This document shows, in pieces, positions 1,286 to 19,221 of a DNA stretch of 64,000 nt; position 1 is the stretch's first letter; each line of letters starts with the position of its first letter. This stretch comes from a virus: the IMG/VR virus record IMGVR_UViG_3300042543_000303, positions 9,961 to 73,960 of that record; one strand, written 5' to 3'. The notes beneath the pieces were generated by a model. The model was not told where the DNA came from, made no database searches, and saw only the letters and a list, made by a program, of their open reading frames with translations. The position numbers were made by a program, and so were the translations under genes.

Positions 1286-1795
1286 CTAAGCTGCCATGAA
1301 ACCGTCTTGATGCGGCCACAGGTACTCGTATGAGCCCGGGGACGACCCTGGATCCTCCAGATAGTCAAACTGCGAGTACCACTCATAGTTCTTAACCAGC
1401 AGCGCGCGCCGATGCGTTGAGACAAGACGCGAGAAGTAGTCGCCGTCTTGCATCCACGACGGCAAGGTTAGCTCGGAACTGACTCGGCCGAGCTCAAGCG
1501 CGCGATCGAAGGTCGCAAACGTCTTGGGCAGAAGAGTAGACTTGTAGCCTCGGGAACGCCACTCAAAATAGGTAGCTGAAATGTACGAGACAAGCAGCGC
1601 CTCGGAGCCGCGCCACATGCGCGTCACCGGGTGATTGACCCAGCCTTTCTGCTGACGGTCGTTGCCCTCAGGGTCAAGACAAGTAAGAGTAAGAAGTGTC
1701 TGCCATGCCTCAAGTGTCTGCTTGTGAAGTCTTTTATTGTCAAGCTGGCGAGCGGTAACTTCAAAGCTGCCAGTATCTACAAGAAATGTCTGCAT
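1286..1795 (-). CDS. pyrimidine-dimer DNA glycosylase-like protein (DenV / MSMEG_6728 family)
   Basis: MQTFL...LD.KRL.KQ.LE..Q, GW.NHP...MWRG, HR..LL.K, Y.WP motifs. Confidence 0.85.
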   Translation of the reverse strand: MQTFLVDTGSFEVTARQLDNKRLHKQTLEAWQTLLTLTCLDPEGNDRQQKGWVNHPVTRMWRGSEALLVSYISATYFEWRSRGYKSTLLPKTFATFDRALELGRVSSELTLPSWMQDGDYFSRLVSTHRRALLVKNYEWYSQFDYLEDPGSSPGSYEYLWPHQDGFMAA

Positions 1796-4608: not shown

Positions 4609-5862
4609 CTATTCTGAGTACCAGCGCTTGCGCACGGCTTCACGGGAAAAGCCTTTGTCAAGGTTAAGAAGCCACTCACGATCACCAATGAGCTCCCCTT
4701 GCGGGCCAGTAGGCGTCCCCTTGATGGCGCCGTTGATAGCCTCGCCTAGCCACGTGGCGGCTTGCACTGGCACGGCCTTACCCCACACGGCCGGCAGCGC
4801 GCTGTACGTGCGAACGGGCTCGATAGCCCAGCCGTCTGGCAGCCCCTGCATCCGTGCTGCTTCACGATGCGTGATTAGACGCGGCTTTGTTGGGTGTACC
4901 ACGTGATCAAGCGCTGAGCCGGTAAGAACGTTCGCCCAGTAGCGATCGCTCCACCGATACGGCGTCGAAAAGCCTAGACGGTAATCCTTTCTTCGAACGC
5001 CCTCTTCAAGATTCTTCCATGTCGGCGGGAACTCGCCCAGGTTATCAACTGCCTTTTTGAGCGCGTCACCTAGACTTTCATTGGCCATCCAGGCGTCGTC
5101 TTCGGCAATAGACGTGAAAACTTCCTCGACCCGTTGAGCGTGGATATTCGTTCGCCCCATGTGCCCGTCAACCTGGCCGGTCTGATTTCTCAGCGAACGC
5201 GTCCATTTTGTGTCGTCCCCGACGTATGGCTGCTCTTCCCACTGATATGGCATATCGGCAAGGTCACCGATGACTTCCATGATCTTAGGCAACTCAGTGG
5301 GGTCGTCGCAGTGCGCACCAAAAGGCAAGCCCTTCTCAACCGCTACCCAGAAATAACGCGGCCGGAACGAAAATCCGCCAAGACGCAGATTGTTGTGCTT
5401 GACGTGATACAGGTCGTATTCTTTGCCGCTTAGCTGTTCGAGCATGTCGCGGTATTGGAGCATTACCTCGCGCCCTTGAGTGTACGCCTGCTGCACACAC
5501 TCAAACGAGACAACTGTCGGCTTCTGCCGCGCGGCGTACTGCATGAATGCACGCGTATGCACATGCGCCGGTGAATCCGGCCCGCGATATGTTGGCCCGC
5601 TAAACGGTGACCACCCTGAGCACGGAGGACACCCGACCACAGCGTCCGTGTCGTCAAAATCCGGCCAGTCATCTGGGTCATCAGAGAACCAGGCGTCCCA
5701 GTACTCATCATCCGAGTTGAAGTGTTTACGGTTCGCTTCCGCGACGCGGTTACCAAAATCAAGAGTGCCGACTCGTCCTTGCATCTTCATTCCAGCATTT
5801 GCCATGCCAAGGCTCATAAAACCAGCAAGGCCGTTGCAGTCAACAAACTTCGGGGCACTCAT
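4609..5862 (-). CDS. DNA cytosine-C5 methyltransferase-fold enzyme with atypical cofactor motifs
   Basis: Likely start MSAPKF (GGAGA RBS). Catalytic GCPPCSGWS, motif VI FECV, motif VIII RPRYF, motif IX REAARMQGLPD, motif X GKAVPV. Motif I is degenerate (DCNGLAGF). Confidence 0.85.
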   Translation of the reverse strand: MSAPKFVDCNGLAGFMSLGMANAGMKMQGRVGTLDFGNRVAEANRKHFNSDDEYWDAWFSDDPDDWPDFDDTDAVVGCPPCSGWSPFSGPTYRGPDSPAHVHTRAFMQYAARQKPTVVSFECVQQAYTQGREVMLQYRDMLEQLSGKEYDLYHVKHNNLRLGGFSFRPRYFWVAVEKGLPFGAHCDDPTELPKIMEVIGDLADMPYQWEEQPYVGDDTKWTRSLRNQTGQVDGHMGRTNIHAQRVEEVFTSIAEDDAWMANESLGDALKKAVDNLGEFPPTWKNLEEGVRRKDYRLGFSTPYRWSDRYWANVLTGSALDHVVHPTKPRLITHREAARMQGLPDGWAIEPVRTYSALPAVWGKAVPVQAATWLGEAINGAIKGTPTGPQGELIGDREWLLNLDKGFSREAVRKRWYSE

Positions 5863-5893
5863 GTGTCTCCTTCGTCGCGCGGTCGCCCTTACC

Positions 5894-6205
5894 TTACGCT
5901 GAGGTTGATCTGTTCTCAGTGATCTGGCCCACCTCATAGCCGCATCCCGCGTATCCGGCAATGTCGATCCAGGTGTCGGCCTGAAACCCGCCATTGACCA
6001 GTCGCGCCATCTTGACAGCGATCATTGCTGCCGCGACGTCCGATTCGGAGAATGGTCGCCCGAAGAGAACGGTCCAGATCCTAGCAATCCGGTTGAAATT
6101 CTCTTCTGGCCCGCCATACTGCTTGTCGCGATTACCGGCAATAAGATCTGCCGCGGTACAAAGAGCTTCCTCGCGGGGGGTCTTCTTGCTTTCTTTGCTT
6201 GCCAT
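5894..6205 (-). CDS. DUF6378-like protein (all-helical, nucleotide hydrolase-associated)
   Basis: R...YG.P..NF.RIA..W, M...K.AR, D.W.DIAGYA. Confidence 0.8.
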   Translation of the reverse strand: MASKESKKTPREEALCTAADLIAGNRDKQYGGPEENFNRIARIWTVLFGRPFSESDVAAAMIAVKMARLVNGGFQADTWIDIAGYAGCGYEVGQITENRSTSA

Positions 6206-6210
6206 GTCTT

Positions 6211-6420
6211 TTACCTCTTCATTCTTAGATGCACGGTTGCCTTGTACGCGCCATCGGCACTCATGTCTGAGTAGCTAGGAGTAATGTCGACTTCGATGTC
6301 GACCCGATTTTCAATTTCATCGATGCTAATCCCAAGAAACTCTGCGACTGCGCGTAACGTCTTACCAGCAATCTCGTCGTACGTATCGCCTTGCACCTCT
6401 AGCTGCGCTGAAGCTCTCAT
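6211..6420 (-). CDS. hypothetical protein
   Basis: 69-aa ORF, translationally coupled within the operon. Confidence 0.6.
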   Translation of the reverse strand: MRASAQLEVQGDTYDEIAGKTLRAVAEFLGISIDEIENRVDIEVDITPSYSDMSADGAYKATVHLRMKR

Positions 6421-6839
6421 TACTTGACTCTCTTCTCGAGCATGTACGGGCTATGATGCGCGCCTTCAATTGCCGGAGCCTTATCGTCCTCCGACTTAAA
6501 AATGACATCTCCGTATCGAATACCAACAATTCGTCCGCGCCGCCCGTTGTGCGCCGTTCCAGCTTCTCCCGTATACGCGTCAGCCTTAACTCGCACCTCA
6601 TCTCCGACAGTGATTTGCCCCGGCTGCGCTTGAACCCAGATCTCATCGGCAACGCTCTGAGGGATAAGCGCGTGCCCGAGTGCTACCTTGCTAAACACTT
6701 CAACTGTCTCGGCCGCTGACTTATCTGTGTGGTTCATTGTGTTCCACAGCTCCATAAGTCTTAGCACCGCCGTGCCAACCGACTGCTTAACTCTTGCCTG
6801 CGCGAATTGCTCGCGCACCCACTCTTCGCTAATCGTCAT
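6420..6839 (-). CDS. hypothetical protein with C-terminal SH3/KOW-like domain
   Basis: VGDEVRVK...GRRGRIVGIRYGDVI; likely start MTISEE coupled to the upstream stop. Confidence 0.65.
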   Translation of the reverse strand: MTISEEWVREQFAQARVKQSVGTAVLRLMELWNTMNHTDKSAAETVEVFSKVALGHALIPQSVADEIWVQAQPGQITVGDEVRVKADAYTGEAGTAHNGRRGRIVGIRYGDVIFKSEDDKAPAIEGAHHSPYMLEKRVK

Positions 6840-7309
6840 GCCACTACCTCGCACTTCACGCAAATTGTTGAATTAGAAACACTAACCCGGACTTCGTCAA
6901 GAGCCCTCGAGCAGACACCACACTTTACTCCAGCCTCGCGAACTTTGTACCCATCGCGCTGGCGCGCTCGATTCTTTTTCATTTTTTCTAGATAGATTTC
7001 GTCAAGCTCTTCGTCGGTGGCTCCAGCGGCGCAGATGATGTTAGCGACAAAATGCAGAACATCGACCGCCTCCTTAACTAGTTCTTCGCGGTCAAGGTAC
7101 GGGTCATCGTGCTGCCACGGTTTCCACGACATTGCTTGCCGCATTTCGGCAAGTTCATCGTCAATCGCCAACATGTTCCAACGCATATACTCGATAGTGG
7201 CGTTGATATCATCAGGCGCGTTGCTGTGGAAGACCGAGTACTTGGCTCCGTAGCACTCTTCCTGAAGCCTGGCAGTCTCCTTGAGCCAGTCTTGAAAAAG
7301 TCTTTTCAT
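6836..7309 (-). CDS. all-alpha NTP pyrophosphatase (dimeric dUTPase / T4 dCTPase / MazG superfamily) with C-terminal Zn ribbon
   Basis: DELAEM...WKPW...EEL.KEAVDVLHF...Y..K...N..RQ..GY, then CGVC...CVKC; likely start MKRLFQ. Confidence 0.85.
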   Translation of the reverse strand: MKRLFQDWLKETARLQEECYGAKYSVFHSNAPDDINATIEYMRWNMLAIDDELAEMRQAMSWKPWQHDDPYLDREELVKEAVDVLHFVANIICAAGATDEELDEIYLEKMKKNRARQRDGYKVREAGVKCGVCSRALDEVRVSVSNSTICVKCEVVA

Positions 7310-7322
7310 TCTTACCCCTACT

Positions 7323-8348
7323 TCACTTTGATGAGAGCAACAGCGTGTCGAGAAGATACTCAAGCGCTTTGCCTTTAGGCGTAATTGAAGATAGATAACT
7401 GTCCTTTTGCTGCGCGGCAAGACTATCTCGCCGCGCTTGATTCATTTCGTCGACGGTAACGGCTAGATCCATCCACGGGTCACCAAGAATAGCAGACTCT
7501 CGCCAATCGGTAACGACTGGCACCCCTACGCCTATAGACTGGGCAACGCGAGGAGTCCACCATGACCCTGTCGGCTTAGACGGCGCAATAAGCGCGCCAA
7601 CACCTTGCGACATCTGCGCAAGAACGTCACGATCTGCCCATCCCTTGTGCTCTTTCATTGGCACGACATTGGTTTTCATTGTTGCTTGAACGCTGGCCGC
7701 CCACCGCGACTTCACATCGTCCACGACCCAGAATCTACTTCCATCGCTAGAAGAGAAAGTTTCTACGTCGTGTACCCGATCAAAAATTAGTGAGTCTAGA
7801 TTCACTGCTCGAAGACTGTTAACCGCGTGGGGCGGGAGTGCGCTTGCAACCTTGCCCTGGTTTCCCCACGGCAGAATCGGGTACAAAGTTTCCGCCCAGG
7901 TGTACGAATTAAGATAGTTAACAGCGCCGTGAATCTTTGCCGCAGTTTCTGGCGTGCGTGCCTGCGCGTAGAACGGCCTAGCCGAATAGAAAGGCTTGAA
8001 CATCGCGGCAGGAGATTCCTGCATCGCGTGAATGCTGTGCGCAATCTTTCCAGGGTCAGGCGCGTCAAGAAAAAGACGCAGCTTAGGGGAATCGCGCATC
8101 TCATTGATAACCCATAGCGCCGCGTACGCATGGTTAGCGGCGACGCTAGTGAGTGGCGATAGCCCAACGAACACGAGATCATAGTCCTCGAGCGCGTCTC
8201 TAGTCATTCCAAAACTCGGTGCGCAGATTTCGCTTGAATGCAGTTTGGTGCTGAGCGCGCTGGATAGAAGTCCGGCAAATGACACCGAGCGCTCTGCGTA
8301 TTTTTTCGACGCCTGAGGCGCAGTCATCCCAGTGATAAGTGTTTTCAT
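7323..8348 (-). CDS. putative GT-B DNA glycosyltransferase, paralogue 2
   Basis: Paralogous to 8593..9774 (MKTLITGMTAPQ, LFLDAP, GSWWTPR); Rossmann-like start; sits in the DNA-modification cluster. Confidence 0.6.
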   Translation of the reverse strand: MKTLITGMTAPQASKKYAERSVSFAGLLSSALSTKLHSSEICAPSFGMTRDALEDYDLVFVGLSPLTSVAANHAYAALWVINEMRDSPKLRLFLDAPDPGKIAHSIHAMQESPAAMFKPFYSARPFYAQARTPETAAKIHGAVNYLNSYTWAETLYPILPWGNQGKVASALPPHAVNSLRAVNLDSLIFDRVHDVETFSSSDGSRFWVVDDVKSRWAASVQATMKTNVVPMKEHKGWADRDVLAQMSQGVGALIAPSKPTGSWWTPRVAQSIGVGVPVVTDWRESAILGDPWMDLAVTVDEMNQARRDSLAAQQKDSYLSSITPKGKALEYLLDTLLLSSK

Positions 8349-8596
8349 TCGCGCCCGCCCGCGGGCTCGTCAACTTCACCAATTTCATCAAGAACAGCAG
8401 GTAGCGCGTCTAGCACGCGTTCGACATCCTCGCACGCGATACTCCCCCAGTTAAGCGCGTCGTCTCCAGCCGGGTAGCTGTTTGGGAACCACGCGGCAAG
8501 AAGAGCTTGCGCTAGTTTTCTTATGAGCTGATCTGTTACATGCTCTGGTAAGTATTCTTCTGGGAAGCTTGTTTCATTGATCTCCGTGTACGTCAT
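8345..8596 (-). CDS. hypothetical acidic protein
   Basis: 83-aa ORF overlapping both glycosyltransferase genes by ATGA junctions. Confidence 0.6.
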   Translation of the reverse strand: MTYTEINETSFPEEYLPEHVTDQLIRKLAQALLAAWFPNSYPAGDDALNWGSIACEDVERVLDALPAVLDEIGEVDEPAGGRE

Positions 8597-9774
8597 ATCT
8601 TGAGTCCTTTGTCTTCTCGTACTGCACGGTGAACGATTTGATCGCAGTGCGCGATAAATGAATCGTAGCTTGGTATGTACTGCCGTAGCGCGTTCTGCTG
8701 CGTGATCGCGAGCTGCGCGAGCTCGGCGTCTGATAGACGCTCAATCTCGGCAATACTCAGCCGGTGGCAGTCACCAAGCGGCGCGCCTTCGTTCTTGTCC
8801 GCGAAGAGAACTGAACCTACACGCGCGGAGTACATGAATCGACTACGCCACCAGCCAGACCCGGCGTGCGGGTACGGCGGAGACAGAATACCCCAGTGCT
8901 CGTTGTAGAACGCGAGGACGTCCTGTTCAGTCTGAAGGCGCTGACCGCCGAGCTTGCGAACCAACTTGCGCGACCCGACAATTTCGACAGGCCACTCAAA
9001 GCGTTTCTTCTCAAGCCACGTGTCGTGCGGCATTAGCGCCCCAAGCACCCACGCGCGTTTCTTGCTCTCTGGCGGCAGCGCTGTGACGCTGTCAAGAATA
9101 GAATAGATCGTCGAGCTCGGGTCAAGCGCCTCGATCGCTGAAAGCTCTTTCGGCATGCGCTTGCGTACCAGTGAACGATCGCCCCACGCGTACATTGGGC
9201 ACACAGGCACCATGCCTGCCCCCCAGCGCGCCCCGAGCAAGTTTCGCGCAGATTCGACAAGCATTGCGTCGTAGTCGCGAACAGACTCGTCAGTCTCCGT
9301 CATATAGTAGCGCTCGATGTAGATCTTGGCGTTAGGGTTAATGGCTAGCGCGCGTTCCTTGGCAGCTACAGCGTCCGCGTGACTAAAGTACGTGGCGCCC
9401 TCCTCGCCGCGATCCTTGCCGACAAGAAGATATTTGTAGATCATCTCGGGCTTGCGTATCAACGCCTTTGCACCATTGAACACGGTGGAGAACTGCCAGT
9501 CATCAAAGAAACCCACGCAGGGTTTCCCGCTAGCAAGAGCGTAAAGCGCGCCCATAGCGCCTTGTCTTCCGTTAAGTGAGTTTAGGGGCGCGAGGTTCAT
9601 CCAGATGACATCGAAAGACGATAGGTCTTCGCCGGGTGTCACCTTGCGCCACTCGACCTCATGCCCGGCGCTACGCAGCGCGTCAACGATTGACGCAGGT
9701 ACGTCAATCTTTGAGATTGTACGCTTGTCGGTGTTGATCTGCAGGGCAGTAAACCCTGACATCAAGATTTTCAT
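8593..9774 (-). CDS. putative GT-B DNA glycosyltransferase (beta-glucosyltransferase-like), paralogue 1
   Basis: MKILMSG...ALRSAGHEVEW, FFDDWQ, PPYPHAGSGWWRSRF; GT-B-like N-terminus. Confidence 0.65.
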   Translation of the reverse strand: MKILMSGFTALQINTDKRTISKIDVPASIVDALRSAGHEVEWRKVTPGEDLSSFDVIWMNLAPLNSLNGRQGAMGALYALASGKPCVGFFDDWQFSTVFNGAKALIRKPEMIYKYLLVGKDRGEEGATYFSHADAVAAKERALAINPNAKIYIERYYMTETDESVRDYDAMLVESARNLLGARWGAGMVPVCPMYAWGDRSLVRKRMPKELSAIEALDPSSTIYSILDSVTALPPESKKRAWVLGALMPHDTWLEKKRFEWPVEIVGSRKLVRKLGGQRLQTEQDVLAFYNEHWGILSPPYPHAGSGWWRSRFMYSARVGSVLFADKNEGAPLGDCHRLSIAEIERLSDAELAQLAITQQNALRQYIPSYDSFIAHCDQIVHRAVREDKGLKI

Positions 9775-9799
9775 TCCGTCTCCTCAGTAGCCCCTGCGA

Positions 9800-9834
9800 C
9801 GTGCCCGCCCGGTGTAGTGGGCCGGGCGGACACG
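9800..9834 (-). terminator. GC-rich hairpin downstream of the SSB gene
   Basis: Minus strand CGTGTCCGCCCGG-cccactaca-CCGGGCGGGCACG. Confidence 0.55.
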
Positions 9835-9852
9835 CCGTACGCTTCGATCGTA

Positions 9853-10425
9853 CTAGAACGGAGAAGCGGGAGGTGCGCTAGCGCTGACAGCTTCTGGTGC
9901 AGGTGCAGGTGCAGGTGCAGGTGCAGGTGCAGGTGCAGGTGCAGGTGCAGGTGCAGGTGCAGGTGCAGGTGCAGGCGCCGCGGCCGGAGCGGAAGCTGCG
10001 AGGGGTGCTCCAGCCGCCGCCTGAGTGGCGTAGTAGGTCTTGATCTCGTTGCGCTTCTGACCCTGCCACGTGCGACTGCCAACCTGCGCACGGAACGAGC
10101 GCCCAACAAGCGCCTGCTCGATCTGAGCATTCGACGGGTTGGTTGCGAAGTAGTCGCGACCGAGACCAAGAGCGTTCATCTTACGGAAGAAGATGCCAAG
10201 CGCATTTGCGTTGTCAGGTGAGACAACCAGGTTGTCCCAGACAAGACGCTTATTGTGCGCGCCACCCTGAACCTGAGTCTTCAGCGCGAACATTGTCTTG
10301 CCTGACTGCGACACTTTTGCGGTTGCCTCGACCACGGTGAGTTCATAGTCGCCGTCCGGCAGCGGCTCATAGCTGCCGACGTCTCCGGCCTCGTTGACGA
10401 GGTCTGACCAGTTGAGACTGCTCAA
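9853..10425 (-). CDS. DUF669-family single-stranded DNA-binding-like protein with Ala-Pro tail
   Basis: YEPLPDGDY, SQSGK.M, RTWQGQKRNEIK, C-terminal PF; lies next to the Sak4-like ATPase. Confidence 0.8.
   Translation of the reverse strand: MSSLNWSDLVNEAGDVGSYEPLPDGDYELTVVEATAKVSQSGKTMFALKTQVQGGAHNKRLVWDNLVVSPDNANALGIFFRKMNALGLGRDYFATNPSNAQIEQALVGRSFRAQVGSRTWQGQKRNEIKTYYATQAAAGAPLAASAPAAAPAPAPAPAPAPAPAPAPAPAPAPAPAPEAVSASAPPASPF
9896..9973. repeat. perfect (GGTGCA)13 microsatellite encoding (Ala-Pro)n
   Basis: Counted directly in the sequence. Confidence 0.95.
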
Positions 10426-10454
10426 TGTATTCTCCTTACTCTGCCTGACGACTG

Positions 10455-11231
10455 TCAGGACGCCTTCTTCTTGGACTCAGCCGGGGCTGCTTCTTGCTTT
10501 GGCCCGAAGACCATGTCGAGCATACGCTCGATTGATAGGTTTTCCTGCTCGACGACTCCGCCGAGCCTACCCTGTACGCGTTCGCCAGCTTCGTACTTCG
10601 GCGTACGCTCGACGTACATGCGACGCACTCGATACGGCCCTTGCGTTGGGTCAGGATTTGGAAATTCCTCGATAGTAATTGCGCCGAGGATATCGTAGAA
10701 ATACGGAGCCTGAATAGCCAGCTGCCCCTGTAGATACGGCTTGTACCGATCATCCTGCCCCGACCGTGCCATGGCGGTAAGAACCACGGCCTCGAGCGGA
10801 GCGGTAGGGTGCATCGTTAGGTCACGCAGATCACGCAAGAGCGCGCCCATGTGACGAAGTAACTCACCCCACTGCTGCTGACTCATCTGCTGCTTCCCCG
10901 CGATATTCTCCAGGCACTTAACCTGGAGCTCAGACACGGAGTCAATGATGAGCGACTTAAACTGATGCTTACCGAGCTGAAGCCACTGGAACGTTTTCAG
11001 CACGGTGTCGTAGTCACGGATTTGCACGACGCAGGTATCCCACGTCCCATCCGCGACAGGCGGCTCCTCACGGAGCGGGTCCCAGTACTTGACAACGATG
11101 GGAAGGAAGCGGTGACCGCCTTCGACATCGAGCATGAGCCGGGGGTAGGGTGCGGTCACGGCGAAGGTTGACTTACCAACCTTTGACTCACCGTAGACCA
11201 TAATGGTTAGAGAGCGCTGTACTTCCGACAT
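10455..11231 (-). CDS. AAA_24 / Sak4-like ATPase (recombinase)
   Basis: YGESKVGKST, LDVEGG, IIDSVSE. Confidence 0.85.
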   Translation of the reverse strand: MSEVQRSLTIMVYGESKVGKSTFAVTAPYPRLMLDVEGGHRFLPIVVKYWDPLREEPPVADGTWDTCVVQIRDYDTVLKTFQWLQLGKHQFKSLIIDSVSELQVKCLENIAGKQQMSQQQWGELLRHMGALLRDLRDLTMHPTAPLEAVVLTAMARSGQDDRYKPYLQGQLAIQAPYFYDILGAITIEEFPNPDPTQGPYRVRRMYVERTPKYEAGERVQGRLGGVVEQENLSIERMLDMVFGPKQEAAPAESKKKAS

Positions 11232-11234
11232 GCG

Positions 11235-12161
11235 TCACTCAGTTCCTTTCTTTTCGGATTCGTAGTAGCCATACGGGTCGGCCACTTCGAACATCTCAGA
11301 GATTGCCTGCTCCGCCGCGCTGCCGTCATCAATCATGTGGCACACGGTGTAGAACTGGCACTTCCAGCTGCAGTCGCGGCTGGGGCGCGGATACGCAACA
11401 AACGCCGGGTCCTCGCCTTCGTCGAGCGCCTTGCGTGTTCGCATTAGATCGGCGATGGTTCCGTGGATGCGCTTCCAGAACGAGCGCAGTGTGAACACGT
11501 TATGACGAACCTCTACCTGCTCGTAAAAAGGCGGCTTCGCGTTCGCTGAACGCTTGACCTTTTTGAGAAGAGTGAAGATACCGCCGTCGCAGCGCTCGTC
11601 GCCTTCGTTTGTTGTCGCCTCGAGAAGCATGTACGTAAGAATCTGCTCGTTCATATGCGACATCTTGTTAAAGTCAGTAAACGAACCGCCGACCGTCTTG
11701 AAGTCGCGAAAGAAGCGCACGCCGTCAGCCTTGCGCCGAACGCGCATATCAAGTTTGCCCTGCAGCTCGACTTCGCCGTTGAACAGCGGGGCGATGATGA
11801 TTTCCTCCGTCGAGATCATCTCGAGCTCGAGGTCGATGCCTTCCTCGTCAACCCACTGCAGATAGCCCTCGAGCATGATGCGCCCAAGCTCTGCCTCATT
11901 GTCTAGGTCTGACGTGTCGCGCCATTGCTCTGCAAGAATCTCGCGGTCCTGCTCGACAAGTTGCGTGTGCGCTTCGAGAAGAGGAATGCCCTTTGAGTAG
12001 TAGCGATCAAGCGCCTCATGAATACGCGACCCGAGCGCGAGCGCTCCAGTAAAGTCTTTAGACTTAGGCTGCAGACGACGGTAATACGTGAGCCACCATT
12101 TGCGCCGGCAGTCCTTGAACGTCTGTATTTCGGAGTTTGATAGTCTTACGACACCAGTCAC
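11235..12161 (-). CDS. Cas4/RecB-like PD-(D/E)xK exonuclease
   Basis: S.S.I.TFKDC.RKW, G..IH.AL, GKLD...DFKT, C..KCQF..VC. Confidence 0.9.
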   Translation of the reverse strand: MTGVVRLSNSEIQTFKDCRRKWWLTYYRRLQPKSKDFTGALALGSRIHEALDRYYSKGIPLLEAHTQLVEQDREILAEQWRDTSDLDNEAELGRIMLEGYLQWVDEEGIDLELEMISTEEIIIAPLFNGEVELQGKLDMRVRRKADGVRFFRDFKTVGGSFTDFNKMSHMNEQILTYMLLEATTNEGDERCDGGIFTLLKKVKRSANAKPPFYEQVEVRHNVFTLRSFWKRIHGTIADLMRTRKALDEGEDPAFVAYPRPSRDCSWKCQFYTVCHMIDDGSAAEQAISEMFEVADPYGYYESEKKGTE

Positions 12162-13963
12162 AGTTTGTTGTCCTTATCGTCACGAAGCATGGAGAGCAGC
12201 TGCGCCTTGTCGCGGACAATCTGCTCAAAGTTATCTGCCTTGGTTTCAAGCGCCTGAATAACACGTTCTTCGATTGTGCCTTCAGTGACGTAATCGGTAA
12301 TGATCACCGAGTCGTGAATCTCTGAGCCAATGCGGTGCACGCGGTCGAGTGCCTGCTTATGATCGACAAGCGACCATGGTCGCTGCAGCATGACAAGTCG
12401 TCGCGCCGCAGTTAGCGTTACGCCGACGCCGCCTGCCTGCGCAGTGAAAAGAATCCACTTGATTCTGCCGGACTGAAAATCGTCGATAGCCTCTTGACGT
12501 TCGTCTTCGGTCTGCGCGCCGGTGATCAGCCCATGGGGAATCTTAGCTTTTGTCATCGCGTTGCTCAGCAACTCAATCAACTGGCGGGACACGGCGCATA
12601 CGGCGACGCTGTCACTGCCAAAGTCGCCGGATGATATGTCGTTCATGAGCGCATCGACCTTACACGACGGCTCGGCAAGAATAACGCGCGATTCACCGCT
12701 CGTCTCGTCGATGACCATCTCGGCATAGGACGACGCAAACTGCAGCAGACGTGTTGTTTGCGTGAGCGGGCTCGGCGCGGTAAGTGCGTCCCCGCCTTCC
12801 AGCTCCGCGATCATCATGTCGCGCATCTGGCCGTACGCCTTCTTCTGCTTGGTTGACATTTCAACGTCGCGACGCTCAAAGAGTACCTCTGGCAGCCACG
12901 GCAACACGCGCGCCTTAAGCATACGGCGCATGCGCGGGTTGATCGCCGCGTAGAACTCTTCCTGCATATGCGGCTTGACACCGAGCACCATCATGCCGCC
13001 GAATGCGTTGAGCATCGTGTCTACAGTGCGATCGACCCAGCGTGTCTTGCTCGGCCATTCTTCTGGCGATAGCCAGTGCAGAATGGACCAGAGATCGAGC
13101 ACGTCATTGGCGATTGGCGTTCCCGTGAGAGCGAATCGGAATGGCGCGTCCGCGGTGGCAGCCCAGAGCGCGCGTGTTTGCTTGCTCTTAGGCTCCTTCG
13201 AGCGGTGGATCTCGTCGGCGATGACGCTCTTGAAGTCGATTTCGTTGAGCTCGCGCCGGTGCACCTCGCAACGGTTTTCGCTGATACGCTCATCGTGGCC
13301 GCCGCAGTCCTTGCACCGAGCCAGAGCCACAGAACCGTAGGGTGCGAGGCGCGAGTGTGATCGTAGCGACTCCCAGTTGATGACGTACACGTCCGCGTCG
13401 CTGGCTAGTTGCTTGCGGCGTTGTCCGGCGCTGCCTTTGATGACCTCGACATTGACGCCTGGCCACCAGAGCGCGAACTCGCGCTTCCAATTCTTTTTGA
13501 GCGTGTTTGGGCACACGATGAGCGCCGGAAACACACCCTCGCCGGCGTCCTGCAGGCGCTTGAGTGCTCGAATTGCCTGGGCGGTCTTTCCGAGGCCAGG
13601 CTCATCAGCAAGAAGGGCTCGACGGGCCGTGGCAAGAAACTCGACGCCCGCTCTCTGGTGGGGAAATAGGTCCTCGTTGACGCCATTCTCGAGGGTCTCA
13701 AGGTCACGAAGGGCGTTGGCCGGGTCGATACGCGCGACTCGCTCATTGGCCGCCCATTCGCCCAGTCTTGGCCCAATCTCAAGGTCGTCTCGAAACGTCG
13801 AGCGTAGCGCCAGGCAGGTTGCCCACCCGAGGGGCGCTCGCCATACCTGATCCTTCGCTGACCAGGTGGCTCCAGGGATGCTTTTGCAAAGCTCCTTGTA
13901 CCGCCACTCGGCGTCGATCAGAATCGACTTGCCTTCGGCGTCGAGCTCTGTCGTTACGGTCAC
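12158..13963 (-). CDS. SNF2-family DNA helicase
   Basis: LLADEPGLGKT, IADEIH, LTGTP, QA.DRVHRIG; likely GTG start at 13963 after a GGAAGGAG RBS. Confidence 0.92.
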   Translation of the reverse strand: MTVTTELDAEGKSILIDAEWRYKELCKSIPGATWSAKDQVWRAPLGWATCLALRSTFRDDLEIGPRLGEWAANERVARIDPANALRDLETLENGVNEDLFPHQRAGVEFLATARRALLADEPGLGKTAQAIRALKRLQDAGEGVFPALIVCPNTLKKNWKREFALWWPGVNVEVIKGSAGQRRKQLASDADVYVINWESLRSHSRLAPYGSVALARCKDCGGHDERISENRCEVHRRELNEIDFKSVIADEIHRSKEPKSKQTRALWAATADAPFRFALTGTPIANDVLDLWSILHWLSPEEWPSKTRWVDRTVDTMLNAFGGMMVLGVKPHMQEEFYAAINPRMRRMLKARVLPWLPEVLFERRDVEMSTKQKKAYGQMRDMMIAELEGGDALTAPSPLTQTTRLLQFASSYAEMVIDETSGESRVILAEPSCKVDALMNDISSGDFGSDSVAVCAVSRQLIELLSNAMTKAKIPHGLITGAQTEDERQEAIDDFQSGRIKWILFTAQAGGVGVTLTAARRLVMLQRPWSLVDHKQALDRVHRIGSEIHDSVIITDYVTEGTIEERVIQALETKADNFEQIVRDKAQLLSMLRDDKDNKL

Positions 13964-14046
13964 TAAGTCTCTCCTTCCGGGTGCAAACAACATACTAACA
14001 GGAAATCTGCAAAAAGTAATAGTTTTCTCGTAGTATGTACAAGATT

Positions 14047-14514
14047 TTATTGAAGTAGCACGGTTGGCTTCCAACCAAGCTTTACTAGCCGTAGAAGCCC
14101 ATGACGAATCGCGTCATTCGCGTGCCCACCACCGCCGACGTGCCAAGTGCCGATTTTACGCAGCGCGTCGTTCGGGAACATCTTTTTTGCGTCCGACGGA
14201 GACTGAAAAATCAACTCAGCTTCGGCATCGCGGGCGTAGTCTCGCATGATCTGCTTAAGCACGCCGATCTGTTCGAGGCTGTATGGCGCCTGACTGTTGC
14301 GCACTGTCTGCGCGTTGATCACAAAGCGTTCGCATACAACGCCAAGCTCAAGACCATGATGCAGCGCCCACTCTAGCGTGTCGCGAATCGGCTTTGCAAA
14401 CTCATCAGGTTGGTACTCACCGGATGACAGTAATTCAGGAGACTCTGACAGGCTAATCACACTGACGCCAGTAGTCTTTCCAGGGTCTACTGCAAGAACA
14501 TACTTCACGTCCAT
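14047..14514 (-). CDS. RuvC-like Holliday junction resolvase
   Basis: LAVDPGKTTG, VVCERF, H.NDAIRH. Confidence 0.8.
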   Translation of the reverse strand: MDVKYVLAVDPGKTTGVSVISLSESPELLSSGEYQPDEFAKPIRDTLEWALHHGLELGVVCERFVINAQTVRNSQAPYSLEQIGVLKQIMRDYARDAEAELIFQSPSDAKKMFPNDALRKIGTWHVGGGGHANDAIRHGLLRLVKLGWKPTVLLQ

Positions 14515-14828
14515 ACGATATTCGCCACTCCTACTCTGGCCAGCCGGCGCTCACAGCGCTTGCACGGTTTTGACATGGCAGGACTACCATCACGCCCAAC
14601 GCGTGCCACGTAGACTGTTGCACCCTTCGCACGAGGTCCCGCCGCGGCAATTGCCGCTTCCTCGGCATGTACGTGCGCGATGCGCCACGTGTTTGAGTCT
14701 GCTTCACGGATTCTTTTATTCGTTGCCTCTGCGACTACTACGCCGTTCGCAACAACAACGCAGCCGTGCCGGTATCTGCACTTACTCGTCGCGGCAATGT
14801 TGATCGCCTGCTCAAGAAACCGGTTCAC
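14505..14828 (-). CDS. small Zn-dependent cytidine/deoxycytidylate deaminase-fold protein
   Basis: HAEEAA...SKPCKRC. Confidence 0.85.
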   Translation of the reverse strand: MNRFLEQAINIAATSKCRYRHGCVVVANGVVVAEATNKRIREADSNTWRIAHVHAEEAAIAAAGPRAKGATVYVARVGRDGSPAMSKPCKRCERRLARVGVANIVWT

Positions 14829-16663
14829 CGGTACTTATCTCCCCATGTCTCAAGCGGACCGTCAATGCCGGCGGTAAGCGGGACGTCCCAGCCGTCTGAA
14901 GTTGTCATACACTCTTGCACAACCTTCATGATCTCGTGCGCCTCACGGCGCGGCGCCTGCAGCACAATCTCGTCGTGCACCGGCACAATGAGATGCTCGG
15001 TGAGATCTGCCTGATCGAGCTTGACGAGGTTCTGCTTAAACACCTCGGCGGCGCCACCCTGAATTAGATAGTTGACAAGTGTGTACACGCGATTCTCATC
15101 GCAGGGGATTCGGCGGCCTGTCCACGTGTAGACGTAGCCCTGCCCTTCCGAGCGTAATCTCCGCATTCCAGTGTCTTCAATCTTGCGCTGGAAGTCGGCC
15201 ATGCCCGGGTAGCGAATGTCAAATGCGTCTGATACTGAACGCATCTGCGTCTCAGGCACGCCGGCAGTTAGCGCTTGCTTCGCGACGCCCGCTCCGTATA
15301 GGCGACCATAGACGGTGCCCTTGATCAGATTACGGCGCTTGTCGCTCTTTTGCATGTCTGGGTCTTGGTAGATTTCGCGACCAATCTCCGTGAACGGGTC
15401 CGAACCCGTCGCGTCCGCGCGGTTAAACAGCGTGATCAGATTGGGGTCGCCAGACAGCGACGCAAACATGCGAAACTCAACCTGGTCGAGGTCGGACGTG
15501 ATAATCACGTGATCCTCGTCCTTTGGAATGAAGGCGGTACGCACCGTGTCATCGCCCTTCGGCAGCGTCTGCAGCGCAGGGTCGGTAATCGACATCCGCG
15601 ACGTGCGCGCCCCGAGAGTCTTCACCGACGGATGAACGATTCCGTCGATAGACTTGGTCAGGAAGTTCTGAAAGTACGTGCCAGCAAGCTTGTCCGCCTT
15701 GCGCTGCTTAAGCACAATCTCGGCGAGCTGCTTGACCTCGTCATTGCCGTAGATCGTCAACATTTTGAGCTGATCCTTGGTGCACGACTTCTGCCCGGTT
15801 GGCGTCATCTCTGTGATCTCCGCGCCGAGGCTCTCAAACAAGCGCACGAGTTGAATGTTACTTGTGATCGACGTCCCGCCGTACGTTTGCTTGGCCCATG
15901 TCTTAACCGACTCGGTGTACGCGGTCAACTCGTCATACTTGCGCTGCGAATAGTCCAAGTCAATTCGTGCGCCGTTAAGTTCCATGCGCGTGACGATGCG
16001 CCGTGCCGCCATTTCGAGTTCGTACGGGCGATTGTAAGGACCGCCTGGGCCACACTTCTCCCAGAACATGTGCCACAGGCGCATTGTCAACACGGTATCC
16101 AGCGCGCCGTACGCCCAGTATGGCTGGAAGTTGATCGGTACCGTTCCCCACGTCCAGCCGTTCTTGGCCAGCTCTGTGTCCAGCGTGTCTTGCAGCGCGA
16201 CGGCGCGCCCGTCAACGTGCAACGCTGCAAGTCGCTTGAGCGCGCCAGAGCCTAGCGGGTCGATGATATGAGCCATGATCATCGTGTCGTGCGCGCGATG
16301 CCATGGAATTTCCCAGCGCGAACGAATGTCAAACCAACGCGCCTCGAACGCGATGTTGTGGCAGACGATAGGACCGTCGAAGCGGCTCATGGCTTCGTAG
16401 AAGACACCAGACCATTCTTCCCAGGGAATCGACCACCCTTGCTCGCCGTCGCCAACCTGCACAAGTCGCAGACGCCCGTGCCATGGCGATAGCGCATGAT
16501 CACGTGGGTTGCCTGGGAGCTCGCCGGTCTCAGTGTCTACAGCGATCGCGTTCAGTGGGCGTCGTTCACTTAGCCAGCGCAGAAACTCACCTGCTTTGTC
16601 GACAGAGTCGACAAGGTGAAGTTGAACGTCGCCCAGATTACCAGTATCAGACAAGAACGTCAC
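14825..16663 (-). CDS. polA: DNA polymerase family A (3'-5' exonuclease plus polymerase)
   Basis: AVDTETG, HNIAFE, DLDQVEFR, K...YG..YG, PVHDEIV. Confidence 0.95.
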   Translation of the reverse strand: MTFLSDTGNLGDVQLHLVDSVDKAGEFLRWLSERRPLNAIAVDTETGELPGNPRDHALSPWHGRLRLVQVGDGEQGWSIPWEEWSGVFYEAMSRFDGPIVCHNIAFEARWFDIRSRWEIPWHRAHDTMIMAHIIDPLGSGALKRLAALHVDGRAVALQDTLDTELAKNGWTWGTVPINFQPYWAYGALDTVLTMRLWHMFWEKCGPGGPYNRPYELEMAARRIVTRMELNGARIDLDYSQRKYDELTAYTESVKTWAKQTYGGTSITSNIQLVRLFESLGAEITEMTPTGQKSCTKDQLKMLTIYGNDEVKQLAEIVLKQRKADKLAGTYFQNFLTKSIDGIVHPSVKTLGARTSRMSITDPALQTLPKGDDTVRTAFIPKDEDHVIITSDLDQVEFRMFASLSGDPNLITLFNRADATGSDPFTEIGREIYQDPDMQKSDKRRNLIKGTVYGRLYGAGVAKQALTAGVPETQMRSVSDAFDIRYPGMADFQRKIEDTGMRRLRSEGQGYVYTWTGRRIPCDENRVYTLVNYLIQGGAAEVFKQNLVKLDQADLTEHLIVPVHDEIVLQAPRREAHEIMKVVQECMTTSDGWDVPLTAGIDGPLETWGDKYR

Positions 16664-17141
16664 TTTCGTCTAGTGTCGAATGAAAAACGTCAACCTTCAA
16701 TCCGCAAGCGCGCAGATACTTGATGACGAGCTCGGGCTTACGATGCGCGTCTGCCTCGCGCAGGCGCATAACAACTCGAACAAGCCCCGAGTTGGACACT
16801 GCCTTTGCGCACGACATACACATGCTTTCGGTTACGTAAATCGTCCCGCCCTCTACCTGAGTGCGATCTACGTAGAGTAGCGCGTTGAGTTCACTGTGAA
16901 TGCTGGGGCACTGATCGTATGTGTTATCTAGCGGAGTTATCCCTTGAGCTCTTGGGCAGAACTCGATGCAGTCACCTTCACTTGGGTAGGTTGCCGCTGG
17001 GCCGTTGTAACCGGTCGAGCAGATACGATTATTGGCGGACACAACAACAGCGCCGATACCAGCGCGTGTGCAGCGACTCCGCAGCGCGATCGTGTCAGCC
17101 ACAGACATCCACGCCTCGTCCCACGTCAGCCTGCCATGCAT
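16647..17141 (-). CDS. dCMP deaminase (variant motifs)
   Basis: A..IA.RS.C.R..GAVVV...TGYNG, HSELNAL, SMCMSCAK; likely start MHGRLTW. Confidence 0.88.
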   Translation of the reverse strand: MHGRLTWDEAWMSVADTIALRSRCTRAGIGAVVVSANNRICSTGYNGPAATYPSEGDCIEFCPRAQGITPLDNTYDQCPSIHSELNALLYVDRTQVEGGTIYVTESMCMSCAKAVSNSGLVRVVMRLREADAHRKPELVIKYLRACGLKVDVFHSTLDESDVLV

Positions 17142-17142
17142 A

Positions 17143-17331
17143 CTAGTCGTCCTCCCGAGCGTCCTCAATCGCCGATCCGGCGCCAAGAACGATGCTACGG
17201 GCGATCAGATCAAGCGCCTCGCGACGCGTAAAGCCGGCGCGCTTAAGTTCCTGGTAGAGTTCGTGCATTTGAATGGCACCGGCAGCGAGCGGGCTCATGT
17301 CATTTGTTGGTTCACTATTCTCATTCGCCAT
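17143..17331 (-). CDS. small hypothetical protein
   Basis: HELYQEL.RAGFTR.EAL pattern, common in actinophages. Confidence 0.65.
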   Translation of the reverse strand: MANENSEPTNDMSPLAAGAIQMHELYQELKRAGFTRREALDLIARSIVLGAGSAIEDAREDD

Positions 17332-18211
17332 TGCTAGTCTCCTCAGTAATCTTCTTGGCCTTTTCTTCATTGTTGCGAATCGCGGTTACCATCGAGTTAG
17401 TAAACCACTTTTCGTGATCCTGCAAACGGTCATAAAGCGCCTGATCAAAGACAGCCTTTAGACAACCAACGGCACTAGCAGACACTTCCTGCCAGATTCG
17501 ACCAGTGATGTATGGAACCGGTACGCCATCTGTTGCGTACTCAAGACTTTCGGCTGCCGCATAGTGCTGCTCATAGATGTGCAACGAACCAACGTGGTGC
17601 GCGTACGTCCCGGGCTCAATGCCTAGCACTGACGCAATCGCAATCTGCACGCGCGTAAACTGAAACCAGTCATATGCGGCGCCGAGCCAAATATCATTCG
17701 AGCGCATGTACACACTCATGTTGAGCTTGCCGTTACGAATGCGGAACTGATGCAGCACCGTGCACGGATAGTCGCGCTTACTTGGCTGCAGATCGAGCTT
17801 TGGGTCCCAGATGGTTACGACCGCCTGCCGCGTATCCGGGTCTTTCTTAAGCCGTTCAATGACGTGCTCGTATTGTCCCCGAGTGCGCGGGCCGTACGCT
17901 CCATGAAACAGCCCATTGTTCTCAGCGTAGTTCGCGAACTGCGGGCCAACCGCAATCACAAGCTCAGGAGCGCTCACCCCCGCAAGAAGCTGCAGCGACT
18001 CAACTGACGCAATACCCGGCACCGCACCGCGCTTAACACCAAGTGGCAGTGTGTTATACACGTCATCGATGACGATCACCGCGTCCTCAATCTCGCGCGT
18101 CTTCATTCCACGCGGCGCGACTTCGTCACCGTTCTCAAGCACCCAACGAACAACGTCGACGTACCCGTTGACTCCGTCGGCAACGTGCTTAATTTTCATT
18201 GCAGGATCCAC
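17321..18211 (-). CDS. thymidylate-synthase homologue, Asp-type (probable dCMP hydroxymethylase/methylase)
   Basis: AYGPR, DTRQAV, catalytic PCT, RSNDIWLGAAYD (Asp where ThyA has Asn177), SLHIY. Confidence 0.88.
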   Translation of the reverse strand: MDPAMKIKHVADGVNGYVDVVRWVLENGDEVAPRGMKTREIEDAVIVIDDVYNTLPLGVKRGAVPGIASVESLQLLAGVSAPELVIAVGPQFANYAENNGLFHGAYGPRTRGQYEHVIERLKKDPDTRQAVVTIWDPKLDLQPSKRDYPCTVLHQFRIRNGKLNMSVYMRSNDIWLGAAYDWFQFTRVQIAIASVLGIEPGTYAHHVGSLHIYEQHYAAAESLEYATDGVPVPYITGRIWQEVSASAVGCLKAVFDQALYDRLQDHEKWFTNSMVTAIRNNEEKAKKITEETSNGE

Positions 18212-19221
18212 TGAGCGCTCCCTTGTATCTCTTCGCCACGAGCGAGTCGCTCGATAGCCTCACCGTATTTTGCCTTGTCGCTAGAATGAAAACGTCGAAC
18301 GTACTGCGGATGCGCCAGCGTTCCGGCCATCTCAAATTCAAGACCAGCGTCAATCGCAGCCCGCTCGGCCTCGCGGCCTAGCGAAATTACTCGCGGGTAA
18401 CCAAGCGCCGACCATAAACCGTGTAGACGTTCAGTGTCGGCAAGATCGTTCGCGTTGACGATACCGAGCTTTGGCCAGGCCTTCTCGGGCAGCGAGTCAA
18501 GAAGGAACTCGCCTGAGTTGCCGCCAACAGGCATGAATGGGAGACGGGTCTCGTCGCCGTACAGCTCGGTGACATTACGCTTGTCTCCAAGAATAAGAGC
18601 GCGTGGAGTTGTTGGCCCGATGTACTCGGGGTACTCAGTGCGCAGCTTAAATGTCTGCCGCGTAGAGAATCCCGCGCGATCAACCACGGCCTTCGCAATT
18701 CCGCGCAGACTAGAAGTATCATTTGGTTCTGGCACCAGACGCTCGACCACGGACGGGGCAACAGTCATACCAAAGTCATAGCGCTCAACGATCGCGTCGA
18801 GTTCGCCGACCGATACAAAATCATCGCCGCGGGACTCAAGGCGTGTTCGAAGAACATCGAGCGGCTGGCTGAGAATCCACGTTGTCGCTCCGCGGGACAT
18901 AAGAAAAAGCTCAACCCATCGCCAGCCTGCGCGCCCGAGTAAACCGTACCCGTCTTTGTTTGTGTGAGGGCGCTTGAGCGGTGCGTACGTGACCTCGCCC
19001 CAGTGCCAACGGTCCGCGACGATACACGCTCCAGACGTCGCGAGTTCGTCAATCGACAAGACGTATTCATTGAGCACCCATCGCCGCGATTCCTCGAGAG
19101 GGCGACCCTTATGAAAATGGTGCGCGCTATGAACTCCGCACGACACGCTTAGGTGGTGCTCGAGCGCTCCAAGCATTGAGCTCTTACCGGCCGCGTCTGG
19201 GCCTTCGATGATGATAAACAT
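18196..19221 (-). CDS. dNMP kinase fused to a uracil-DNA-glycosylase-like domain
   Basis: N-terminal IIEGPDAAGKSS and DRWHW.E..Y; C-terminal LILGDK, PF...SGEFL, VISLGREA, HPQY. Confidence 0.75.
   Translation of the reverse strand: MFIIIEGPDAAGKSSMLGALEHHLSVSCGVHSAHHFHKGRPLEESRRWVLNEYVLSIDELATSGACIVADRWHWGEVTYAPLKRPHTNKDGYGLLGRAGWRWVELFLMSRGATTWILSQPLDVLRTRLESRGDDFVSVGELDAIVERYDFGMTVAPSVVERLVPEPNDTSSLRGIAKAVVDRAGFSTRQTFKLRTEYPEYIGPTTPRALILGDKRNVTELYGDETRLPFMPVGGNSGEFLLDSLPEKAWPKLGIVNANDLADTERLHGLWSALGYPRVISLGREAERAAIDAGLEFEMAGTLAHPQYVRRFHSSDKAKYGEAIERLARGEEIQGSAQWILQ

Follow-up and report, generated by a model that had tools for sequence, protein, structure and literature searches.

A 64,000 nt stretch of the virus record IMGVR_UViG_3300042543_000303 (IMG/VR; bases 9961-73960 of the 73,960 in the record, hereafter the window) carries, at positions 4609-19221, a module of co-oriented genes predicted to produce glycosylated 5-hydroxymethylcytosine (5hmC). 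Cytosine would be replaced by 5hmC before replication and a sugar added afterwards, as in the T-even phages, and we put the probability that glycosylated 5hmC is the virion base at about 60%. A previous interpretation of the same DNA, made from the letters alone (the sequence-only reading), had proposed the logic of phage T4 combined with a family A polymerase. That proposal held for the homologue of thymidylate synthase (TS), the kinase, the deaminase, the gp56 homologue, the two glycosyltransferases (GT1 and GT2) resembling the T4 beta-glucosyltransferase (BGT), and the occurrence of GT1 relatives in phages with gp42-type enzymes, but not for the DUF6378 protein and the C5-cytosine methyltransferase-like (MTase-like) enzyme as parts of the pathway.

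All of the genes listed in the sequence-only reading are present, and every gene of the region lies on the minus strand. The order of transcription is kinase, TS homologue, dCMP deaminase, PolA, a small deaminase, five replication and recombination genes, GT1, an open reading frame (ORF) of 83 codons, GT2, pyrophosphatase, two small ORFs, the DUF6378 gene and the MTase-like gene. Three start codons (MTase-like enzyme, pyrophosphatase and the larger deaminase) were moved inward from those of the longest ORFs, according to where homology begins in relatives. The genes on which the argument turns are the following.

18196-19221, minus strand: P-loop nucleotide kinase (residues 1-154) with a C-terminal domain (residues 155-341) like the uracil-DNA glycosylase (UDG) superfamily; phrog_761 thymidylate kinase, 2e-10.
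17321-18211, minus strand: TS homologue with a dCMP hydroxymethylase signature; PF00303, 1.2e-25.
16647-17141, minus strand: dCMP deaminase; PF00383, 3.1e-16, and phrog_174, 5.9e-37; the longest ORF extends to 17186, and the likely start is the Met at 17141.
14825-16663, minus strand: PolA, a family A DNA polymerase with a 3'-5' exonuclease domain; PF00476, 1.8e-55, and PF01612, 2.9e-5.
14505-14828, minus strand: second, small deaminase (107 aa) of the cytidine deaminase (CDA) fold; PF00383, 1.1e-11, with the HAE and PCxxC motifs intact.
8593-9774, minus strand: GT1, a GT-B glycosyltransferase of no named family; AlphaFold model and PDB fold match.
7323-8348, minus strand: GT2, a diverged paralogue of GT1 with a GT-B fold; BLASTP against GT1, 8e-10, and AlphaFold model.
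6836-7309, minus strand: gp56-like all-alpha NTP pyrophosphatase (dUTPase_2); PF08761, 2.5e-10; the longest ORF extends to 7420, and the probable start is at 7309.
4609-5862, minus strand: C5-cytosine methyltransferase-like enzyme; PF00145, 4.7e-18; the longest ORF extends to 5994, and the probable start is Met45.

The best PDB match of the TS homologue is the CMP 5-hydroxymethylase MilA (1.1e-25). In a HMMER alignment to true TS, Cys150 corresponds to the catalytic Cys146, and it is also aligned with the Cys of MilA. Three residues earlier, Asp147 occupies the position of Leu143 (E. coli) of TS and is invariant in the alignment, which includes T4 gp42. Asp173 corresponds to D169 and is kept within the motif RSND, both here and in 25 related loci. 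The position of Asn177 is occupied by Asp (LGAAYD versus LGVPFN of true TS), as it is in T4 gp42, so the description of the enzyme as an Asp-type TS homologue was correct and extends to the full hydroxymethylase signature. This signature (Cys/Asp143/Asp169/Asp177) is invariant in 25/25 related loci that reach the gene and is shared by T4 gp42 and MilA; in the same alignment, the SPO1-like dUMP hydroxymethylase gp29 keeps Asn at position 177. According to tested residue rules published in 2026, N177D selects dCMP as the substrate, L143D/E accompanies a hydroxymethyl instead of a methyl product, and D169N is the mark of the flavin-dependent 5-hydroxy-dCMP synthases of RB69 (gp48) and others (PMC13326640). 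By these rules the TS homologue is predicted to be a 5hm-dCMP synthase. A 5-hydroxy-dCMP synthase of the RB69 gp48 type was ruled out, as D169N is absent from the protein.

The pyrophosphatase is a true homologue of T4 gp56, since both proteins match PF08761 and they align directly by BLASTP (5e-11 over 151 residues). From this relationship it is proposed to be a dCTPase/dUTPase, with dCTP as the probable preferred substrate.

The N-terminal domain of the kinase matched SPbeta YorR (1.2e-8) in a profile search of the PDB, and then, weakly, thymidylate kinases. Its gene adjoins that of the TS homologue, an adjacency kept even in Gordonia phage GodonK, whose kinase lacks the extra C-terminal domain. 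The pairing of a TS homologue with its own dNMP kinase is needed for modified cytosine to appear in E. coli DNA (PMC13326640), and the position of the kinase gene fits such a pairing by analogy; the enzyme may do the job of gp1 despite its unrelated sequence. The kinase(-UDG) assignment of the sequence-only reading thus held for the P-loop kinase, while the UDG part is a lead. The Atlas structure of the C-terminal domain resembles an archaeal UDG cluster at lead level (TM 0.63, feature score 0.85), and a profile search of the PDB with this domain gave no match at E 10. It contains three conserved motifs, GD(K/R)RN, PFMPV.GNSG and HPQYV, the first of which occupies the position of UDG motif A (GEAPG/GQDPY type).

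The two deaminases of the sequence-only reading both have the CDA fold and match PF00383. One of the two is conserved in all relatives; the small, 107 aa protein is an accessory gene of the module, because it is found in only five related loci (L008, L080 and L082-L084).

GT1 and GT2 gave no Pfam or NCBIfam match even at E 10 and belong to no annotated PHROG family. They had been described as two paralogous GT-B proteins, and this was borne out by BLASTP (8e-10) and by AlphaFold models built from alignments of metagenomic relatives (pLDDT 89.4 for GT1 and 91.5 for GT2), both of which show GT-B folds. The best PDB match of GT1 is T4 BGT (Foldseek 2e-7; VIA-align Z 20.2 over 306 residues, root mean square deviation 3.6), and the T4 alpha-glucosyltransferase (AGT) aligns with a VIA-align Z of 16.9. 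In a scan independent of Foldseek against all 48,161 PDB clusters, T4 BGT ranked first (Z 18.5) and T4 AGT second (Z 16.6). GT2 also has T4 BGT as its best PDB match (Z 17.8, 298 residues), tied within 1 Z with SenB (16.9). Together the two proteins form a sequence family apart from BGT and AGT, as profile comparison with BGT is insignificant. On the strength of the modelled folds, GT1 and GT2 are proposed as candidate DNA 5hmC glycosyltransferases. The window carries no sugar-nucleotide genes.

Relatives of GT1 occur in at least 217 IMG/VR loci, and every related locus of sufficient length has the complete gene set in an unchanged order. The genes for GT1, GT2 and the pyrophosphatase are direct neighbours in 70-80 loci, as are those for GT1 and GT2 in 78/81. 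Co-occurrence across phage genomes, which the sequence-only reading had suggested as a check, was found within this lineage and in Gordonia phages, and GT1 also accompanies a gp42-type enzyme in Straboviridae. By tblastn, GT1 homologues were detected in T4-like Straboviridae of Aeromonas, Vibrio, Stenotrophomonas, Providencia and Erwinia, the named ones being Aeromonas phage 25, phiAS4, Vibrio phages and Erwinia FBB1. Aeromonas phage 25 and Erwinia FBB1 each encode a normal ThyA as well as a gp42-type enzyme with the Asp/Asp/Asp signature. In both, the GT1-family gene is annotated as 'hypothetical' and adjoins a gene for UDP-galactopyranose mutase (L094:3896-6077 in phage 25 and L093:5937-8062 in FBB1). 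Because GT1 homologues, gp42-type enzymes and the mutase co-occur in these two phages, the family is tied, at the level of gene content, to modified-cytosine DNA in a second, unrelated group of phages.

A phage mutase has been proposed as the source of UDP-galactofuranose for DNA glycosylation in Rhizobium phage RL38JI (PMC13326640). The relatives with a mutase beside the glycosyltransferase probably use galactofuranose, and galactofuranosyl-5hmC DNA is predicted for the mutase-carrying Straboviridae. Among closer relatives, Actinomycetia phage DSL-LC01, assembled from a metagenome, carries the gene for a UDP-galactopyranose mutase between its two glycosyltransferase genes, at the place where the present phage has the 83 aa ORF. 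GodonK carries the module at 24-45% identity: gp118 is the homologue of GT1, gp116 that of GT2 (2e-26), gp112 the pyrophosphatase and gp110 the MTase-like enzyme, while gp114 and gp115 are further glycosyltransferases. These GodonK genes for glycosyltransferases, pyrophosphatase and MTase-like enzyme lie about 25 kb from the TS gene, beyond a tRNA array. The cultured Micrococcus phage Kurnik (56 kb) has, at L099:8327-13173, recombination genes, two glycosyltransferases, MazG, a small ORF and an MTase-like gene in like order. Its glycosyltransferases are about 250 aa long and of a different type, which suggests that the sugar-adding step has been swapped within a fixed module. In the literature searched, no paper was found that describes the module or discusses DNA modification in DSL-LC01 or the GodonK group.

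The proposed pathway would begin with the gp56-like pyrophosphatase, which would cleave dCTP (and dUTP) to the monophosphate, emptying the dCTP pool and supplying dCMP. The TS homologue would then hydroxymethylate dCMP at C5 with methylene-tetrahydrofolate, the adjacent P-loop kinase would convert the product to 5hm-dCDP, and host NDP kinase would form the triphosphate. Phage PolA would place 5hm-dCTP into DNA, and the dCMP deaminase would channel some of the dCMP into dUMP, for use by the host in making thymidylate. Finally, GT1 and GT2 would flip 5hmC out of duplex DNA and transfer to it sugar from a host NDP-sugar, either in sequence or as two different linkages. Two conserved parts of the module, the MTase-like enzyme and the UDG-like domain of the kinase, are not explained by this scheme.

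Several points weigh against the scheme. The case is built from sequence and fold. The decision between a hydroxymethyl and a methyl product relies on a correlative residue rule. A search of the complete T4 genome with the kinase gave nothing up to an E of 10, so the kinase shows no homology to gp1, and its substrate, 5hm-dCMP, is assigned from the adjacency to the TS homologue gene. The likeness of the modelled GT1 and GT2 to T4 BGT is one of fold only: alignment with T4 BGT by hhalign had a probability of 0.7%, PF09198 gave no match at E up to 10, and GT-B enzymes with many different acceptors score only 2-4 Z below T4 BGT. Co-occurrence over the 217 IMG/VR loci represents one phage lineage, and it shows selection, not independent association. 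The main loose end is the conserved MTase-like enzyme, which has an intact catalytic Cys and would lack a substrate if every cytosine were modified at C5. Calling the pathway 'complete', as the sequence-only reading did, was an overstatement, given a kinase unrelated to T4 gp1 with a deduced substrate.

The MTase-like enzyme keeps the catalytic PPC (motif IV), the Glu of motif VI, the RxR of motif VIII and motif IX. Its motif I reads DCNGLAG, not FxGxG, and is invariant in the clade. Motif X reads GKAV, with Lys in place of Asn, in all relatives, including DSL-LC01 and GodonK gp110 (32% identity). As cytosine would be fully replaced under the favoured scheme, a standard C5 methylase would be left without a target; with no obvious substrate and no TET or CmoA partner, its earlier inclusion in the pathway was not upheld. 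CmoX, the natural DNA cytosine C5-carboxymethyltransferase of Synechococcus phage S-B43, has an Arg instead of the motif X Asn, and this Arg binds the carboxyl group of Cx-SAM; M.MpeI with a Lys engineered in for the same Asn also produces carboxymethylcytosine (PMC12783734). In a profile search, the structure of SpCmoX (8yf3) was a weak match to the MTase-like enzyme (5e-8), below M.HhaI, and the catalytic motif is CPPC compared with SPPC in CmoX. Searches for CmoA (TIGR00740) were negative in this record, in DSL-LC01 and in two relatives that are 100% complete. For TET/JBP (PF12851), this record gave no match, and two relatives of 100% completeness, two partial ones and DSL-LC01 gave none that exceeded the cut-off. 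A reading of the enzyme as part of a methyltransferase-TET-glycosyltransferase system was set aside for want of a TET/JBP above the cut-off, as was a CmoX reading, given Lys instead of Arg, CPPC instead of SPPC and no CmoA. One complete relative (L088) has a weak Tet_JBP-like match of 16.9 bits (cut-off 34.9; G001:C1:100746-100940) in a 218 aa ORF far from the module, probably a generic 2-oxoglutarate oxygenase.

The MTase-like enzyme is central to one alternative, in which the main or an extra modification is made after replication by this enzyme with a donor other than S-adenosylmethionine (SAM), by CmoX-like carboxymethyl transfer or by chemistry on 5hmC, and the glycosyltransferases decorate the product. 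The Lys at motif X in every member, even GodonK at 32% identity, the behaviour of CmoX and of the engineered M.MpeI, and the remodelled motif I all speak for it. The enzyme is nevertheless no closer to SpCmoX than to M.HhaI and has CPPC, not SPPC; CmoA is missing from the record, from both 100%-complete relatives and from DSL-LC01; no TET/JBP rises above the cut-off; and the TS homologue, kinase and dCTPase would be left without a purpose. We regard this alternative as improbable. A related idea, that the module makes more than glycosyl-5hmC, is unlikely but deserves slightly more weight: the MTase-like enzyme, using a non-SAM donor or acting on 5hmC via a covalent C6 adduct, would write a second, undescribed cytosine derivative, and the kinase-UDG-like fusion could be a base-flipping DNA kinase. 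The architecture of that fusion recalls gp186 of phage SP10, in which 5-HMUDK is fused to a glycosylase fold.

The MTase-like enzyme, with its intact catalytic Cys, would gain a substrate if the modified base were 5-hydroxymethyluracil (hmU). In this route 5hm-dCMP from the TS homologue would be converted to 5hm-dUMP by a phage deaminase, hmU would replace thymine and be glycosylated by GT1 and GT2, cytosine would stay unmodified and available to the C5-MTase-like enzyme, and the pyrophosphatase would be a dTTPase/dUTPase. The presence of two CDA-fold deaminases, one of them kept in all relatives, is consistent with it; gp56-family enzymes also hydrolyse dUTP (T4 annotation), XP12 is reported to deaminate C5-modified dCMP to thymidylate, and T4 AGT has been crystallised with hmU-containing DNA, according to PDB titles. 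However, in known hmU phages the enzyme is of the Asn type and acts directly on dUMP, as the Asn of SPO1-like gp29 illustrates, T4 has a dCMP deaminase too and yet makes 5hmC, and the relatives of GT1 in T4-like phages stand alongside gp42-type enzymes. No genes for 5-HMUDK or aGPT-PPlase were seen, and we judge this route to be as improbable as modification after replication by the MTase-like enzyme. Lower still is the likelihood that the TS homologue is a dCMP methylase, giving XP12-like 5-methylcytosine DNA or dTMP by deamination of 5-methyl-dCMP, and that the glycosyltransferase pair modifies not DNA but, for instance, a virion protein or a polymer of the host envelope. Taken by itself, Asp at N177 is also compatible with a dCMP methylase (Liu and Santi, as cited in PMC13326640), the glycosyltransferases fall in no named family and resemble BGT at the fold level alone, and another glycosyltransferase, of family 2 with TPR repeats, is encoded in the record outside the window. 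This is opposed by the Asp at the L143 position, as in hydroxymethylases, by the location of the pair between the recombination genes and the dCTPase homologue and not in structural or lysis modules, by the two T4 DNA glucosyltransferases being the top two fold matches among all PDB clusters, and by the co-occurrence of GT1 relatives with gp42-type enzymes in Straboviridae. Glycosylated 5hmC is thus the reading we prefer.

The remaining genes of the region are as follows.

14047-14514, minus strand: RuvC-like resolvase; phrog_1981, 5.9e-19; the DSL-LC01 orthologue is annotated as RuvC-like.
12158-14074, minus strand: SNF2-family helicase; PF00176, 2.8e-37, and PF00271, 3.8e-15.
11235-12161, minus strand: PD-(D/E)XK nuclease; PF12705, 6.1e-23.
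10455-11231, minus strand: AAA_24 RecA-like ATPase; PF13479, 1.1e-18.
9853-10425, minus strand: DUF669 protein, like single-strand DNA binding proteins; PF05037, 4e-12, and phrog_378, single-strand DNA binding protein.
8345-8596, minus strand: 83 aa ORF between GT1 and GT2, shared with no relatives but the nearest (L008 and L009).
6420-6863, minus strand: conserved 147 aa protein, kept in all related loci.
6211-6420, minus strand: 69 aa ORF, possibly a helix-turn-helix protein; weak matches to that motif, and conserved only in L008 and L009.
5894-6205, minus strand: DUF6378 protein; PF19905, 1.4e-26, and phrog_474.

The five genes from the RuvC-like resolvase to the DUF669 protein form a replication and recombination module between the two halves of the region, outside the modification pathway, and are not supported as members of it. 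Nor is the DUF6378 protein, which the sequence-only reading had counted among the pathway genes. The family is reported in unrelated phages of Klebsiella, Brucella and Faecalibacterium and makes up large PHROG families, a search of the PDB with the protein returned no relative, and nothing links it to base modification. The 147 aa protein at 6420-6863 (minus strand) shows a weak likeness to Tad3, a Thoeris inhibitor (20.5 bits, under the cut-off of 27).

The record is estimated by CheckV to be 44% complete. Nearly all genes of the window are on the minus strand, with the head genes followed by the tail genes, the region 4609-19221 and then the large terminase. The whole stretch gave no megablast match to GenBank phages; the nearest named phage by protein is DSL-LC01 (OQ999401), followed by the Gordonia phages of the GodonK group. 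A search among assembled contigs found the same DNA in at least 14 lake-water metagenome runs from 2016-2024. Taken with the actinophage relatives of its proteins, this makes a freshwater actinobacterium a fair inference for the host. The phage is a siphovirus-type actinophage with a family A polymerase. Every related locus of sufficient length has the genes of 4609-19221, at 40-97% identity, and these are therefore real genes and not chance ORFs.

Other genes of the record lie away from the region. Downstream of the terminase, a DUF4406 protein of 123 aa is encoded at 792-1163 of the window (minus strand; PF14359, 2e-22). The DUF4406 family is related to nucleoside 2-deoxyribosyltransferases and dNMP N-hydrolases, and this protein might act on the nucleotide pool. 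A pyrimidine-dimer DNA glycosylase of the T4 endonuclease V type is encoded at 1286-1795 (minus strand; PF03013, 5.6e-15), and DSL-LC01 has one at the equivalent relative position. The head module contains an ORF of 2884 aa (48711-57365, minus strand). Just past the low end of the window, the same record encodes a class I SAM methyltransferase of 176 aa (L091:9048-9578, minus strand) and the family 2 glycosyltransferase with TPR repeats (L091:8019-9086, plus strand).

If the favoured scheme is correct, T4-style replacement of cytosine with sugar decoration is not confined to T-even phages of Gram-negative bacteria, and such DNA would be widespread in a large group of related phages of actinobacteria, with the module in at least 217 IMG/VR loci. 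The components would be a family A polymerase replisome, a new family of BGT-like glycosyltransferases and a different kinase, and the public annotations 'thymidylate synthase', 'thymidylate kinase' and 'hypothetical protein' would be misleading. The modified DNA would affect sequencing, cloning, restriction cutting and CRISPR targeting of these phages; protection against restriction and CRISPR systems, which the sequence-only reading had raised, is suggested by analogy only. Since some relatives are in culture (Gordonia phages GodonK, Phendrix, Forza and GMA2, and Micrococcus phage Kurnik), the claim is open to test by standard mass spectrometry of nucleosides. New chemistry could be concealed in one element alone, the conserved methyltransferase look-alike, which has a Lys in its cofactor pocket.

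Among known systems, the T-even pathway to glucosyl-5hmC (gp56, gp42, gp1, the dCMP deaminase Cd, and AGT/BGT) has the same set of activities as predicted here. The likeness to T4 consists of the gp42 active-site signature, the gp56 homologue and a BGT/AGT-type GT-B fold as the best match. In contrast to T4, which has a family B replisome, the polymerase here is of family A, a UDG-like domain is joined to a kinase that has no relationship to gp1, the glycosyltransferases are outside the BGT/AGT sequence families, and there is a conserved C5-MTase-like enzyme that has no counterpart in T4. The pathway to glycosylated 5-hydroxycytosine of RB69, DLP3 and RL38JI (PMC13326640) follows a common plan, a TS homologue with its own dNMP kinase and then DNA glycosyltransferases. 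RL38JI uses a phage UDP-galactopyranose mutase, and this enzyme is also found beside GT1-family genes in DSL-LC01, Aeromonas phage 25 and Erwinia FBB1. Unlike these 5-hydroxycytosine phages, the present phage keeps Asp169, by which hydroxymethyl and not hydroxyl is predicted, and its window is without genes for sugar-nucleotide synthesis.

Clusters of a methyltransferase, 5mYOX/TET and glycosyltransferases (PMC8256090; bioRxiv 10.1101/2023.12.21.572611) likewise combine C5-MTase-family and glycosyltransferase genes in one module, and glycosyl-5hmC is predicted in both cases. Here, however, no TET/JBP was found in the record or in complete relatives, and a route at the nucleotide level through TS homologue, kinase and dCTPase is present instead. 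CmoX of S-B43 (PMC12783734) and the MTase-like enzyme share the C5-MTase fold, and in both a basic residue has replaced the motif X Asn, which faces the transferred group; they differ in Lys versus Arg and CPPC versus SPPC, in the lack of CmoA and CmoY here, and in their weak sequence likeness.

The closest systems are those of DSL-LC01 and the Gordonia phages GodonK, Phendrix, Forza and GMA2, which carry the same module in the same order at 24-82% identity. DSL-LC01 adds the UDP-galactopyranose mutase, while GodonK adds two glycosyltransferases and has a kinase without the UDG-like domain. In GenBank, the proteins of the module in DSL-LC01 and the Gordonia phages are named thymidylate synthase, thymidylate kinase, hypothetical protein, MazG and methyltransferase. 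Apart from two unexplained conserved additions, the proposed pathway keeps the logic of T4 and assembles it from a different replisome, a different kinase and a different family of glycosyltransferases.

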